Notes: generated by a model not told the origin, from the letters alone. Positions 2,720-12,688 are shown, counted from the first letter of the stretch. The stretch: 12,688 nucleotides of DNA from a virus (IMGVR_UViG_2734482785_000014:1-12688), one strand, 5' to 3'. Translations and numbers: made by a program.

Positions 2720-3019
2720 ATGAAACAGAAAATTTCTGGCTTTACTGCCAGCGGCCCCGCTCGGCCTGAAATCCGCCCCGGCGATATTTTCAAAGATAAA
2801 TACGGCGGCATGGTAACGATTAAAGGCGTGGCGGGACGGTGCGTTACTTACCGCCGTGATGGGTATAGCTATGACTGCGTGATGCCTGTTTATCAGTTCC
2901 GGCGTGATTTTTCTCTGGCACAGAACGCAACACGCGGTAAGCCCACCAGCAAAGAAAAAGCACGGGCAAATATTCAGGCCATAAGAAAAATGCTTAACGG
3001 ATTCAGGGGTAAAAAATGA
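2720..3019 (+). CDS. Hypothetical small basic protein upstream of the primase (99 aa)
   Basis: Its stop overlaps the primase start (ATGA at 3016-3019). Translation MKQKISGFTASGPARPEIRPGDIFKDKYGGMVTIKGVAGRCVTYRRDGYSYDCV.... It resembles the small proteins often found just upstream of primases in P4-like and PICI elements; family unverified. Confidence 0.55.
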   Translation: MKQKISGFTASGPARPEIRPGDIFKDKYGGMVTIKGVAGRCVTYRRDGYSYDCVMPVYQFRRDFSLAQNATRGKPTSKEKARANIQAIRKMLNGFRGKK

Positions 3020-5139
3020 AGCTGGCACCGAATGTAAAACTGTTACCGAAAGATAAAGGCGAGGATGCCGTGATTTTTGCGGGGGATGACGCATACAGTC
3101 ACGCAGAGCATTACATGCAGGGCGGAGAAGCCAGAAAGCGCGGTGACAAAATACCACCTGTTTATCTCGGACGGCGTGAACTGAGCAACCTGGAAAATCT
3201 GCGCATCGTGGATGAAGGACGGTTATGTGTCATGGTCAGACGTGCCGGAAAGCTGGACGGCAAACAGGCGCTACAGATTGAAACCATGCTGGCAGTGGCT
3301 GGTGTTAAGGAGGCCCGTTTTTGCAATGAGAACGGCGAACTGCTGGAGGACTGGACACCACAGCTTGCCAGACTGAAAGACGAATACGAGCGCGGGGAAA
3401 GTCTGGTGTTGCCCTTAAAGAAAAAAATCACAGAAAACCAGGGCGATGATGAATTAAAGCCCCGCGTTGAAAGTCGCGCCGATGGTGTTTTCTGGGTAAC
3501 GCCCAAAGTGGATAAGCAGTCAGGCGAAATTATCCGGCCTGAGACGTGGTTATGTTCCCCGCTTGAACTGCTGGGAACGGGGACAATCGGCAAAGAACAT
3601 TACCGCGTGATGCGCTGGAAAAAGCCAGCAAATCATGAAGTCATCACAATGGCGGTTCCGTGCGGTGGCATTGGCGACCGTGACGGCTGGCGGCTGCTGA
3701 AAGACCACGGGCTGAACGTAACAACCAACGGTAAATACAGGGCAATCCTGGCTGACTGGATGCAGTTAAGCGGAAGCCATGAGGAATGGCAGTTAAGCAC
3801 AACAACGGGCTGGCATTTTGGCGCGTACATCATGCCGGACGGTTCGGTCATTGGTGATTGCGAAAAGCCAGTCCTGTTTACCGGAAAAACTGCTGCTGTT
3901 AATGGCTATTCCGTGGCAGGAACGGCGGAGGGCTGGCGCGACACCGTGGCGCGACTGGCTGGTGGTAATCCGTCCATGATGCTGGGGGTGGCGGTATCGT
4001 TATCCGCACCATTAATCGGGCTGGTGGGCGCTGACGGCTTCGGGGTACATCTTTTCGAACAGTCATCGGCAGGTAAGACCACAACGCAGAACATCGCATC
4101 AAGTTTATGGGGAGCGCCGGACGCGCAGCGGCTGACCTGGTACGGCACAGCGTTAGGTATCGCCAACGAAGCAGAGGCACACAATGACGGGCTTTTACCC
4201 CTGGATGAAATAGGCCAGGCCGGAAACGCGCGGGAGGTGTCCACGTCAGCCTATACGCTGTTTAACGGTTCCGGGAAATTACAGGGGGCAAAGGACGGCG
4301 GCAACAGGGAGATAAAACACTGGCGAACGGTGGCAATCAGCACCGGAGAAATGGACGTTGAGACATTCCTCAAAACGGAGGGGATAAAAGTCAAAGCGGG
4401 GCAGCTTGTCCGCCTGCTTAACGTTCCGATGGAAAAAGCCACGCAATTTCACGAATACAGCACCGGAAAGGCGCACGCAGACGCGTTAAAGGATGCCTGG
4501 ACAGCAAATCACGGGGCGGCGGGTCGTGAGTGGGTTAAATGGCTGGCAGAACACCAGCAGGAGGCAAAGGACACGGTAAGGACATGCCGTGAGCGGTGGC
4601 GCAACCTGATACCGGAGAGCTACGGCGAACAGGTTCACCGTGTGGGGGAGCGATTTGCCATACTGGAGGCCGCGCTTGTGCTTTCAGGTCATGTTACTGG
4701 CTGGGATGAGCAGGAATGCCGCGATGCCATACAGCATAATTTTAATGCCTGGGTGAAGGAGTTCGGCACGGGTAACAGGGAGTTTAAACAGATGGTTGAA
4801 CAGGCAGAGGCTTTTTTAGCGTCGTTCGGATTCAGCAGATACCTTCCCTGGCCCAACTCTGACGAGCGTGATTTACCGATTAAAGAGCTTGCCGGATACA
4901 GAAAGGGGAGTATCAGAAACGAAGATGACGAGTTCCGTTTTTACACGTTCCCGCATGTATTTGAGGGTGAGATAGCACAGGGATTTAATCCGTCTCACTT
5001 TGCCCGCGCGTTGAGTGCTGCCGGAATGCTGGAAGCGGGTAACGATCGCCGTTACAAGAAAAAGGCGCTCGGCAAAATTGGGGGGAAGCAGCATGTTTTT
5101 TACGTGCTGATGTTCCAGCCAGAAAGCGAAGAAGATTAA
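3016..5139 (+). CDS. Replication initiation protein, primase/helicase-like P-loop NTPase (707 aa)
   Basis: Walker A-like motif GFGVHLFEQSSAGKTTTQN and Walker B-like LLPLDEIGQAG sit in the central domain. The size and its position immediately upstream of an iteron origin match satellite and phage primase-helicase (DUF927/D5-type) replication proteins. Ribosome-binding site AGGGGT at 3005-3010. Confidence 0.8.
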   Translation: MKLAPNVKLLPKDKGEDAVIFAGDDAYSHAEHYMQGGEARKRGDKIPPVYLGRRELSNLENLRIVDEGRLCVMVRRAGKLDGKQALQIETMLAVAGVKEARFCNENGELLEDWTPQLARLKDEYERGESLVLPLKKKITENQGDDELKPRVESRADGVFWVTPKVDKQSGEIIRPETWLCSPLELLGTGTIGKEHYRVMRWKKPANHEVITMAVPCGGIGDRDGWRLLKDHGLNVTTNGKYRAILADWMQLSGSHEEWQLSTTTGWHFGAYIMPDGSVIGDCEKPVLFTGKTAAVNGYSVAGTAEGWRDTVARLAGGNPSMMLGVAVSLSAPLIGLVGADGFGVHLFEQSSAGKTTTQNIASSLWGAPDAQRLTWYGTALGIANEAEAHNDGLLPLDEIGQAGNAREVSTSAYTLFNGSGKLQGAKDGGNREIKHWRTVAISTGEMDVETFLKTEGIKVKAGQLVRLLNVPMEKATQFHEYSTGKAHADALKDAWTANHGAAGREWVKWLAEHQQEAKDTVRTCRERWRNLIPESYGEQVHRVGERFAILEAALVLSGHVTGWDEQECRDAIQHNFNAWVKEFGTGNREFKQMVEQAEAFLASFGFSRYLPWPNSDERDLPIKELAGYRKGSIRNEDDEFRFYTFPHVFEGEIAQGFNPSHFARALSAAGMLEAGNDRRYKKKALGKIGGKQHVFYVLMFQPESEED

Positions 5140-11043: not shown

Positions 11044-12688
11044 GTACGCAGAAGGCGTAAAAAACGGCAAAATTACGGCCTGTAAACGACTGAAACAGAC
11101 CGTTAAACGGTATTTTTCTGACCTTGAAAACCCCCTTTATATGTTCGATTCGGAGGTCGTGGAGCGGTTTATTGCCTTTTCCAGGGTGTGCCCGCACGTA
11201 AAAGGCGCAATGCACGGTAGCCCCATTGAACTGGAGCCGTGGCAGCAGTTCGCCTTTGCGTGCATCCTGGGCTTTAAGGTTAAGGCCACCGGACGGCGCA
11301 AATACACCAGCGCATTCATTGAAGTACCGCGAAAAAATGCCAAATCCACGGTCGCCGCTATCCTGGCTAACTGGTTTCTGGTTATGGAAAACGGGCAGCA
11401 GGATATTTACACCGCCGCCGTGAGTCGTGATCAGGCGCGGATCGTGTTTGATGATGCGCGTCAGATGTGCCTTTTATCCCGACCGTTACGAAAGCGGGTA
11501 AATATTCAGGCGAACAAGGTGATACACCCGAAAACCAACAGCCTGTTAAAGCCACTGGCAGCAAAAGCGGCAACCATTGAGGGGAAGAACCCGAGTCTTG
11601 CCATTGTGGATGAATATCACCTGCACCCTGACAACGGGGTTTATTCCGCGCTTGAACTGGGAATGGGGGCGCGTCCGGAGGGGTTATTATTTGCCATCAC
11701 CACATCGGGGAGCAACGTTGTTTCAGCCTGTAAACAACACTACGACTATTGCTGCCAGATACTGGATGGTGAAGAGGTGAACGAATCCATGTTCGTGCTG
11801 ATTTACGAGCTGGATGATGAAAGCGAGGTTGACGATCCGGCGATGTGGATAAAGGCGAATCCCAATATCGATGTTTCCGTCGATCGTGAAAAACTGGCCT
11901 CAACCATCCAGAAAGCGCGGGGTATTCCGTCGCAGTGGGTGGAAATGCTCACCAAGCGATTCAATATCTGGTGTCAGGGGGCTACGCCGTGGATGGGTAA
12001 TGGTGCATGGGCGGAGTGCGCCGGAACGTTCGCGGAGGCGGATTTATACGGGCAGGAGTGCTACGCAGGGCTGGACTTATCATCAACCAGCGATATTTCC
12101 AGCGTGTGCTATGCCTTTCCGGTCGGTAAAAAGATTATGCTGGTTTCCCGTCACTATCTGCCGGAATTTCAGCTACAGAACCCCGCTAATAAAAACCGCG
12201 CCATCTATCGCCAGTGGGTAAAGGCGGGCTGGATACGCACAACACCGGGTGACTGCATTGATTATGACCGTATCCGTGATGACATCATGGCGGATGCAGA
12301 GAATTTCAATATCAGGCTGGTGGGCTTCGATACATGGAACGCTACGCACCTGAGGACGCAGCTACAGGGGGCAGGATTTGAGGTGGAGCCGTTCCCGCAA
12401 ACATACCTTCGTTTCAGTCCGGCGGCGAAATCGTTCGAAGTTTTTGTTAACCGGAAGGTGATTGTGCATCGTGGCGATCCGGTGCTGGCCTGGTCAATGT
12501 GTAATGTTGTGATGCAGAGTGACGCGAACGCCAATATCAAGCCGAACAAGAAAAAATCATCCAACAAGATAGACCCGAGCGTTGCGGCGCTGATGGCGTT
12601 TGGCACATTCCAGGCAGAGCATGAGGAATTTGCATTTGATATGAGCGACAGCCACAAAGAGCGGCTTGCGGCGTTTGATGGTGTGTAA
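11021..12688 (+). CDS. Terminase large subunit (555 aa)
   Basis: N-terminal ATPase domain with P-loop-like VPRKNAKST and Walker B-like LAIVDEYH, and a C-terminal nuclease region. Its start overlaps the small terminase 3' end by 23 nt with ribosome-binding site GAGGAAGAGG. The stop codon is the last three bases of the window. Confidence 0.9.
   Translation: MSLTAWHEYAEGVKNGKITACKRLKQTVKRYFSDLENPLYMFDSEVVERFIAFSRVCPHVKGAMHGSPIELEPWQQFAFACILGFKVKATGRRKYTSAFIEVPRKNAKSTVAAILANWFLVMENGQQDIYTAAVSRDQARIVFDDARQMCLLSRPLRKRVNIQANKVIHPKTNSLLKPLAAKAATIEGKNPSLAIVDEYHLHPDNGVYSALELGMGARPEGLLFAITTSGSNVVSACKQHYDYCCQILDGEEVNESMFVLIYELDDESEVDDPAMWIKANPNIDVSVDREKLASTIQKARGIPSQWVEMLTKRFNIWCQGATPWMGNGAWAECAGTFAEADLYGQECYAGLDLSSTSDISSVCYAFPVGKKIMLVSRHYLPEFQLQNPANKNRAIYRQWVKAGWIRTTPGDCIDYDRIRDDIMADAENFNIRLVGFDTWNATHLRTQLQGAGFEVEPFPQTYLRFSPAAKSFEVFVNRKVIVHRGDPVLAWSMCNVVMQSDANANIKPNKKKSSNKIDPSVAALMAFGTFQAEHEEFAFDMSDSHKERLAAFDGV

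Follow-up and report, generated by a model that had tools for sequence, protein, structure and literature searches.

The prototype capsid-forming phage-inducible chromosomal island (cf-PICI) is EcCIEDL933 of Escherichia coli O157:H7, a 15.4-kb element that carries int, alpA, rep and genes for a capsid protein, protease, portal, connectors, HNH, TerS and TerL, and no tail genes (10.1101/2022.09.08.507074). Mutant analyses and electron microscopy showed that EcCIEDL933 makes small capsids from its own proteins, packages exclusively itself and needs a helper phage only for tails (10.1101/2022.09.08.507074). The same preprint states that the order capsid-protease-portal-connectors, then hnh-terS-terL, is conserved in proteobacterial cf-PICIs. 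Such small island-specific capsids and self-packaging have been shown for EcCIEDL933 and a few other islands. In a separate literature, the helper-embedded PICIs were described with an A:Terminase_1 site group, off-target chromosomal insertions and four zones, namely integration, Bro (with C4 and isrK RNAs), replication and late (PMC10111431). Here we analyzed the viral stretch IMGVR_UViG_2734482785_000014:1-12688 (12,688 nucleotides; hereafter, the window), which is very probably the interior of a 15.1-kb cf-PICI and covers its Bro/immunity, replication and late zones, in that order.

By BLAST and exact string match, the sequence of the window is that of L012 5537-18224 (100% identity). L012 is our designation for 20.7 kb of contig JUCF01000006.1 from E. 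coli assembly GCA_000798235.1, one of three contigs found to encode the exact DUF927 protein of the window. Genes were called by profile search against Pfam, PHROG and NCBIfam, RNAs by Rfam and structural relatives by PDB sequence search. Comparison with the empty yeaO site of strain C600 set the island limits at L012 3604-18747 (15.1 kb), and Tommasini et al. 2023 (PMC10111431) gave 3601-18747 for the same element. The insertion lies three codons into yeaO, with GAA alone common to both junctions. To the right of TerL are ∼520 bp with no credible gene and then the chromosomal transporter gene nimT. An initial annotation had the element start at 3016; the whole window, along with int and alpA upstream of it, in fact belongs to the island. 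That annotation had also advised a search for an integrase, att repeats and an absence of tail and lysis genes, and each was found: int and two alpA genes on the left, the GAA junctions, and no tail, baseplate or lysis gene within the 15.1-kb limits among the Pfam families of all L012 gene calls. No window ORF (open reading frame) had a tail or lysis match in Pfam or PHROG, and nothing phage-like was present beyond TerL on the source contig. The window contains no tRNA genes, so this is not a tRNA-targeting island. All of its long genes lie on the + strand, and all genes named by the initial annotation are intact.

We compared the island with L016, an EcCIEDL933-type island from an O157:H7 genome whose capsid protein is essentially identical to PDB 9gyi. 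EcCIEDL933 and the island are alike gene for gene, from the DUF4222 gene, the DUF927 replication gene (Rep), the GCGGGTTA iterons and the single-stranded DNA-binding protein (SSB) gene, through the PerC-family gene and a small ORF, to the entire block from capsid to TerL, including the ORF at the position of gene 1792. They are also alike in size (15.4 versus 15.1 kb), and both are without tail or lysis genes. Thirteen syntenic window proteins are 43-92% identical to those of L016 (TerL 92%, TerS 89%, HNH 84%, Rep 83%, portal 80%, capsid 63%, adaptor 57% and 82-aa ORF 43%), with the DUF4222 and PerC-family proteins at 69% and 60%. The capsid protein matched PDB 9gyi, the EcCIEDL933 capsid, with an E of 7.5e-155 over residues 1-386 (63% identity, BLASTP), and TerL, 92% identical to the EcCIEDL933-type protein, is only 30-33% identical to prophage TerL. 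The 61-aa ORF between HNH and TerS shares 80% identity with the syntenic L016 ORF, and its C terminus is conserved in L015 (database record LR881103). Loss of its positional counterpart, EcCIEDL933 gene 1792, cuts transfer severely (Alqurainy et al., 10.1101/2022.09.08.507074). The features concerned are as follows, in window coordinates unless L012 is named.

L012 3772-4995, left of the window: int, tyrosine integrase (Arm-DNA-bind_3 and Phage_integrase)
L012 4973-5536, directly left of the window: two Phage_AlpA genes
2720-3019, + strand: DUF4222 protein, translationally coupled to the Rep gene (Pfam DUF4222, E 2.6e-24)
3016-5139, + strand: replication initiator-helicase, DUF927, 707 aa (Pfam DUF927, E 7.5e-46)
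5165-5315, no strand: iteron origin, GCGGGTTA in two forward and three to four reverse copies, 21-bp phased, with an AT-rich spacer between
5376-5801, + strand: SSB (Pfam SSB, E 3.8e-16)
5805-6098, + strand: PerC-family transcriptional activator, conserved in cf-PICIs (Pfam PerC, E 3e-35)
6144-6392, + strand: conserved 82-aa ORF (phrog_1957, E 2.7e-36)
6666-7835, + strand: HK97-fold major capsid protein with an N-terminal delta (scaffold) region (Pfam Phage_capsid, E 3.6e-71)
7890-8450, + strand: S78 prohead serine protease (Pfam Peptidase_S78, E 1.2e-45)
8452-9666, + strand: portal, 404 aa (Pfam Phage_portal, E 4.4e-94)
9659-9958, + strand: head-tail adaptor Ad1, gp6-like connector (phrog_40, E 2.2e-27; TIGR01560, E 1.1e-19; weak in Pfam, E 9e-4)
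9958-10398, + strand: HNH endonuclease of the HNH-TerS-TerL cos-packaging system (Pfam HNH, E 8.8e-10)
10382-10567, + strand: 61-aa ORF between HNH and TerS, at the position of EcCIEDL933 gene 1792
10570-10640, no strand: candidate cos region, with the G-rich motif GGGGTGGGGGAGGTTTTCAGGACA at 10579-10602 and an imperfect complement, CCGCCCCCTC, 40 nt downstream
10687-11043, + strand: small terminase TerS, P27 family (Pfam Terminase_4, E 1.6e-23; TIGR01558, E 5.9e-18)
11021-12688, + strand: large terminase TerL with ATPase and nuclease domains, its stop codon ending on the last base of the window (Pfam TerL_ATPase, E 5.2e-26; TerL_nuclease, E 2.6e-52)

The order capsid-protease-portal-connector-HNH-TerS-TerL, which had struck the initial annotation as inverted, is exactly the published proteobacterial cf-PICI order. 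Its reading of the locus as a cf-PICI is supported by this gene order, the 13 syntenic homologs, the int and alpA genes on the left with a chromosomal gene on the right, and the absence of a close phage. The hidden Markov model searches it proposed for the head proteins returned the strong capsid, protease and portal matches listed above, and its remark that no tail gene follows the connector holds for the window. The head and packaging set that it took to be complete does include the capsid, protease, portal, Ad1, HNH, TerS and TerL but lacks a head-closure protein. Its expectation of novelty did not survive. The cf-PICI family was described in 2022-23 and is reported in about 13% of Enterobacteriaceae genomes, and this exact element is catalogued in the supplementary table of PMC10111431 as HE-PICIoffA246 (Eco2384.15.A246_DUF333|yeaN, JUCF01000006.1/3601-18747, identity gaa), so the island has little value as a discovery. 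A search of the main texts of the literature for "yeaO" with "PICI" returned no paper; the element appears in the supplementary table only, as DUF333|yeaN.

The island differs from EcCIEDL933 in several respects. EcCIEDL933 has a Phage_HCP gene between portal and connector, whereas the window has none. The att sites and integrases differ, EcCIEDL933 occupying roxA/phoQ in O157 and the window island belonging to the yeaO or prophage-terL clade. A BRO-N gene and isrK and C4 RNAs are present in the window, and in L016 the corresponding zone is annotated with an Icd-like gene. Between TerL and attR, L016 has ∼48-nt repeats (CGGTAACTGGTTGATATTTTCG...; L016 16300-16750) in the place where the window lineage has GCGGGTTA repeats. 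Finally, because its adaptor is only 57% identical to that of EcCIEDL933, the tail compatibility of the island probably differs.

When measured against cf-PICI criteria taken from He et al. 2025 and SatelliteFinder, the island has the expected size (range about 10-18 kb), int and AlpA regulation, its own replication genes, capsid, protease and portal, HNH-TerS-TerL, the cf-PICI gene order, and no tail or lysis genes. Of the two expected neck proteins, Phage_connect_1/Ad1 and Phage_HCP/Hc1, it has Ad1 only. SatelliteFinder accepts 10 of 11 components as "Type B," which is its commonest class (459 of 969).

Ad1 is the only neck protein encoded in the window, and no head-closure gene (Phage_HCP/phrog_25/Hc1) was detected in any frame of the window by tblastn with three Hc1 queries (best E 0.48). 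In EcCIEDL933, the L003-type relatives and LR881103, a 112-aa Phage_HCP/phrog_25 gene lies between portal and Ad1; it is absent also from islands of E. coli 042, UMNF18, A41 and S21EC. The window portal is 98% identical to the L003-type portal, yet Ad1 is only 58% identical, with the junction at 9633-9755. Thus, the neck region appears to be a swapped cassette and not the product of a simple deletion; neck cassette swapping in general has been described in a preprint (He et al. 2025). The Hc1-less portal-Ad1 junction was present at 90-100% identity in 143 of 5,426 complete E. coli genomes, and Hc1-less islands occupy three or more att sites (yeaO, rcnR/thiM and prophage terL). Between sub-variants, Ad1 has a ratio of nonsynonymous to synonymous polymorphism (pN/pS) of 0.13-0.17, based on few substitutions, which indicates purifying selection. 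The Hc1-less neck arrangement therefore looks maintained. It is possible, although doubtful, that this lineage represents a cf-PICI sub-type that has no head-closure (stopper) protein of its own and takes the stopper as well as the tail from its helper.

UMNF18 itself (L017, 2521802-2548122, and a further match in this genome) carries two related cf-PICIs, one of them in a prophage terL. The second, between rcnR and thiM, has a ProQ/FinO-family gene at the PerC position, and its HNH and TerS genes are annotated as frameshifted.

Over 407 aa, the integrase shares 98.8% identity with the enzyme of the island embedded in terL in E. coli 042, and the ends of the two islands are identical. In embedded copies, TTACCAA is common to attL and attR and lies within the reading frame of the prophage terL. 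Helper-embedded PICIs are characterized by a doubled TGTATTGC motif that occurs twice in attP, once about 81 bp before and once about 132 bp after the crossover (PMC10111431). The island has the doubled motif GTGTATTGCnCTGTGTATTGC in both arms, ∼80 bp before the right junction (GTGTATTGCGCTGTGTATTGC, L012 18645-18665) and ∼127-130 bp after the left junction (GTGTATTGCACTGTGTATTGC, L012 3731-3751). The 21-bp direct repeats GTGTATTGC(A/G)CTGTGTATTGC had been considered as the att core, but the empty-site comparison puts them ∼80 and ∼130 bp inside the junctions, and they match the published arm motif. The helper-embedded PICIs of the site group A:Terminase_1:245/246 (PMC10111431) resemble the island in integrase, ends, the four zones and the doubled tgTGTATTGCantgTGTATTGCa in both attP arms at ∼81/132 bp, and its integrase and attP arms place the island in the helper-embedded clade. 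Those elements sit in a prophage, whereas this copy sits in yeaO, with GAA alone common to attP and attB. Members of this clade normally insert into terL of lambdoid prophages that combine an HK97-type head with a lambda-type tail, and the yeaO copy is therefore a secondary-site (off-target) insertion. Indeed, the yeaO junction was found in none of the 5,426 complete E. coli genomes, compared to 35 with the terL junction. Since the island is not inside a helper late gene, one feature that defines helper-embedded PICIs is lacking, and the authors of the catalogue class this copy as off-target.

The close relatives in L001-L010 lie inside prophage terL genes; the DNA of L003-L010 is ∼97% identical to the window over 9755-12688, and the TerL protein is identical. 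A prophage-embedded source for the window itself, suggested by all eight contigs with an identical TerL protein, was set aside because BLAST and exact string matching identify the window as the yeaO insertion. The closest complete genomes are those of E. coli 042 (96.7% identity), NRZ96606 and others. In these genomes and in all eight identical-TerL contigs, portal, capsid, connector, tail tube and tape measure genes start ∼0.5 kb after the island TerL. The initial annotation had held that tail genes beyond TerL would make the locus an ordinary rearranged prophage; they are absent from L012 and present in the relatives, where they are part of a lambdoid prophage. The island splits the terL of this prophage, so that an N-terminal TerL pseudogene lies before the island int and a C-terminal nuclease fragment after the island. 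Between island and 042 prophage, the head and packaging proteins share only 25-41% identity, and the two adaptors have no detectable similarity. What could be mistaken for a single rearranged prophage is thus an island nested within a separate element, the prophage. Taking downstream tail genes as the mark of a prophage can therefore lead to a false refutation, since the relatives normally sit in prophage terL.

In protein families the island does resemble HK97-like siphophages and the 042 lambdoid prophage, all having a delta-domain capsid, S78 protease, portal, gp6-like adaptor, HNH, P27 TerS and TerL. The 042 prophage order, however, is HNH-TerS-TerL-portal-protease-capsid-adaptor, as opposed to capsid-protease-portal-adaptor-HNH-TerS-TerL in the island, and head-closure, tail, lysis and lambdoid early genes are all missing from the island, which measures 15 kb versus ∼40 kb for an HK97-like phage. 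These data bear on the idea that a classical PICI recently acquired its head genes from its own helper by "late gene capture" (Tommasini et al.), as opposed to carrying an old, separate cf-PICI head lineage. The idea draws on the helper-embedded clade of the island, in which capture of helper late clusters has been proposed (PMC10111431), and on head genes of the same HK97 type as those of the usual host prophage. Recent capture is nevertheless improbable, given the low identity to the host-prophage proteins, the dissimilar adaptors and a gene order unlike that of the prophage. Moreover, the nearest relatives of the head genes are those of other cf-PICIs including EcCIEDL933 (57-92% identity), and no phage record exceeds 76% nucleotide identity, that record being a 16.5-kb satellite-like genome.

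None of the 50,697 phage records searched is a close relative of the window. The nearest, LR881103, is the record just mentioned and is 76% identical across the head genes. It is a 16,548-bp sequence from an induced prophage (LR881103.1), deposited as a phage under the name "Escherichia phage vB_KppS-Ant." Its layout resembles that of a cf-PICI (TerS, TerL, int, primase, capsid, protease, portal, Hc1, Ad1 and HNH), and TerL is directly followed by an additional gene of 765 aa with a tape measure annotation.

Slightly less probable again, and already largely refuted, is a decayed or rearranged HK97-like prophage in which tail and lysis genes disappeared and the head genes were reordered. All of the head and packaging proteins do have phage homologs, but the tail genes ∼0.5 kb beyond TerL in the closest complete genomes, which could suggest such an origin, are those of the separate prophage whose terL halves flank the island. 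In L012, the neighbors of the island are yeaO and nimT. Islands with this 15-kb content, their ORFs all intact, are present at several att sites, and the adaptor gene is under purifying selection. An inward-facing int with alpA behind it and a layout in four zones characterize PICIs, not prophages (PMC10111431). A gene transfer agent (GTA)-like head module that packages random host DNA is scarcely credible, since the PDB matches to the Rhodobacter capsulatus GTA (capsid 6tb9, E 6e-56; portal 6tba, E 6e-23) reflect a shared HK97 family in which the EcCIEDL933 capsid is far closer, and the island has its own integrase, att sites, replicon, HNH-TerS-TerL cos-type set and immunity RNAs and none of the tail genes that GTAs encode.

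The initial annotation described a primase/helicase-like replication protein, an iteron origin and an SSB. The SSB is clear from its Pfam match, and the origin is supported by six GCGGGTTA matches in the window compared to 1.2 expected, a number reached in 0 of 200 shuffles. Specifically, GCGGGTTA occurs twice in forward orientation at 5169-5185 and three times in reverse orientation at 5262-5311 in 21-bp phase, together with one degenerate copy, and it also adjoins the DUF927 gene in L016. For the replication protein, the helicase part of the description stands: the nearest solved relatives of the DUF927 Rep are a Staphylococcus aureus pathogenicity island (SaPI) protein and the Cch helicase of the staphylococcal cassette chromosome mec (SCCmec), and it is a distant relative of both (SaPI protein 8tch, E 1.4e-14). 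The primase part does not, as no primase domain was detected in Rep by Pfam, NCBIfam or PDB sequence search, and the PHROG "DNA primase" family phrog_1139 aligns to it only from profile position 241 onward.

A second GCGGGTTA cluster, of three forward and three reverse copies, is found at L012 18306-18458, between TerL and attR and 82-234 bp to the right of the window end. The cluster is also present in L007, L009 and L010, relatives with a replication module other than DUF927, and may therefore be something other than a simple Rep site. Either a second replication site like crr of P4 or a passenger or leftover of recent recombination is conceivable. The DUF4222-DUF927-SSB replicon is replaced by a Mu-like early region (DUF2786, GemA and Mor) in L009 (170-3750) and L010 (280-2230) and by an AAA_25 helicase in L007. 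The islands with the Mu-like early region have the identical TerL and head module. The occurrence of Mu-like or AAA_25 early regions beside the same head module indicates that the head/packaging module is shuffled between quite different backbones.

The satellite P4 has no capsid, portal or terminase of its own; instead, its Sid protein remodels the capsids of P2, whose cos and terminase it also uses. Like P4, the island has an inward-facing int followed by alpA-type regulators, as well as two octamer-repeat clusters reminiscent of ori and crr. The Rep proteins differ, that of the island being a DUF927 protein with no primase domain detected. A third likeness is that C4/isrK-type immunity RNAs lie within an Ash/Eta-like ORF, a parallel between the Bro zone and the CI RNA (PMC10111431).

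In the late zone, the G-rich motif at 10579-10602 is conserved in LR881103, which is otherwise 76% identical and whose linear record ends exactly there. The corresponding HNH-TerS region of the 042 prophage is similar in architecture and different in sequence. The ends of LR881103 were considered as proof of the cos position and kept as weak evidence, as its authors may have re-oriented the record. We would tentatively place the island cos site within the 289 bp that separate hnh from terS.

The head genes do not directly follow the SSB gene, as had been stated; the PerC-family gene, the 82-aa ORF, a terminator-like hairpin and a 274-bp gap intervene. The PerC-family protein presumably has a regulatory role. 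The hairpin (6402-6428) follows the 82-aa ORF, and a promoter-like site is found at 6489-6516. The accessory slot at 6393-6665 is empty in the window, holding 274 bp with the terminator-like hairpin and a tandem of TTGTTCGAGG. In relatives, this slot before the capsid gene holds a 168-aa minus-strand gene (phrog_5789), which had no PADLOC match. PADLOC gave no defense or cargo match for nine window proteins and one relative's accessory protein, and no cargo gene was recognized in the island.

The left part of the window contains the Bro zone, with these features:

55-639, + strand: BRO-N domain protein, anti-repressor-like, opening the Bro zone of the island (Pfam Bro-N, E 1.7e-17; phrog_2593 anti-repressor, E 1.6e-80)
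1251-1448, minus strand: small DUF3950 gene
1654-2268, + strand: Ash/Icd-like ORF, 204 aa, containing the immunity RNA genes (Pfam Phage_ASH, E 3.9e-15; NCBIfam phage_ICD_like, E 2e-25)
1837-1913, + strand: isrK RNA (Rfam, 80 bits versus gathering threshold 50)
1935-2022, + strand: C4 antisense RNA (Rfam, 75.3 bits versus gathering threshold 45)

The two RNAs, which are also known from the Bro zones of PICIs (PMC10111431), form a P4/P1-type RNA immunity module; a promoter-like site (1801-1830) and a terminator-like hairpin (1891-1909) accompany them. The Ash/Icd-like gene is called at the same place in L012. A 437-aa ORF with a GTG start (955-2268), the longest of the left part, was rejected as a single gene because the match to Ash/Icd is confined to its last third, where the source annotation has the 204-aa gene.

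Taken together, the data suggest the following model. By analogy with EcCIEDL933 and the work on helper-embedded PICIs, a helper phage would activate AlpA, leading to AlpA-dependent excision. Replication would then start at the iteron origin by means of the DUF927 helicase and SSB. A late transcript would begin after the hairpin at 6402-6428, perhaps from the promoter-like site at 6489-6516. The delta-domain capsid protein, protease and portal would assemble small procapsids (T=4, about 15 kb), and HNH-TerS-TerL would cut at the island cos and fill these heads with 15-kb units of island DNA only. Ad1 would cap the portal. Helper tails would finish the particle, which helper lysis would release. 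Because the lineage has no head-closure gene, the stopper too would possibly be helper-supplied. With 43-92% protein identity to EcCIEDL933, the island would be expected to behave in the same way as that element.

Several points weigh against this interpretation. The island has all but one of the 11 core cf-PICI components, the exception being the head-closure protein, and every tested gene of the EcCIEDL933 packaging module was needed for transfer (10.1101/2022.09.08.507074). The cos assignment depends on one database record with possibly arbitrary ends. The off-target site has only 3 bp of identity with attP, which may impair excision, and the helper is not identifiable from 20.7 kb of contig. 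The yeaO copy is known here from its sequence, and its inducibility and transfer are presumed from those of EcCIEDL933.

The island joins two literatures, cf-PICI and helper-embedded PICI, in one element. If the lineage does take its stopper from the helper, the tail-facing surface of the head would be helper-made, and tail compatibility could be widened or re-set. This would go beyond the published model, in which adaptor plus connector decide tail specificity, and the Hc1-less variant might help to find out which of the neck proteins determine compatibility with tails.

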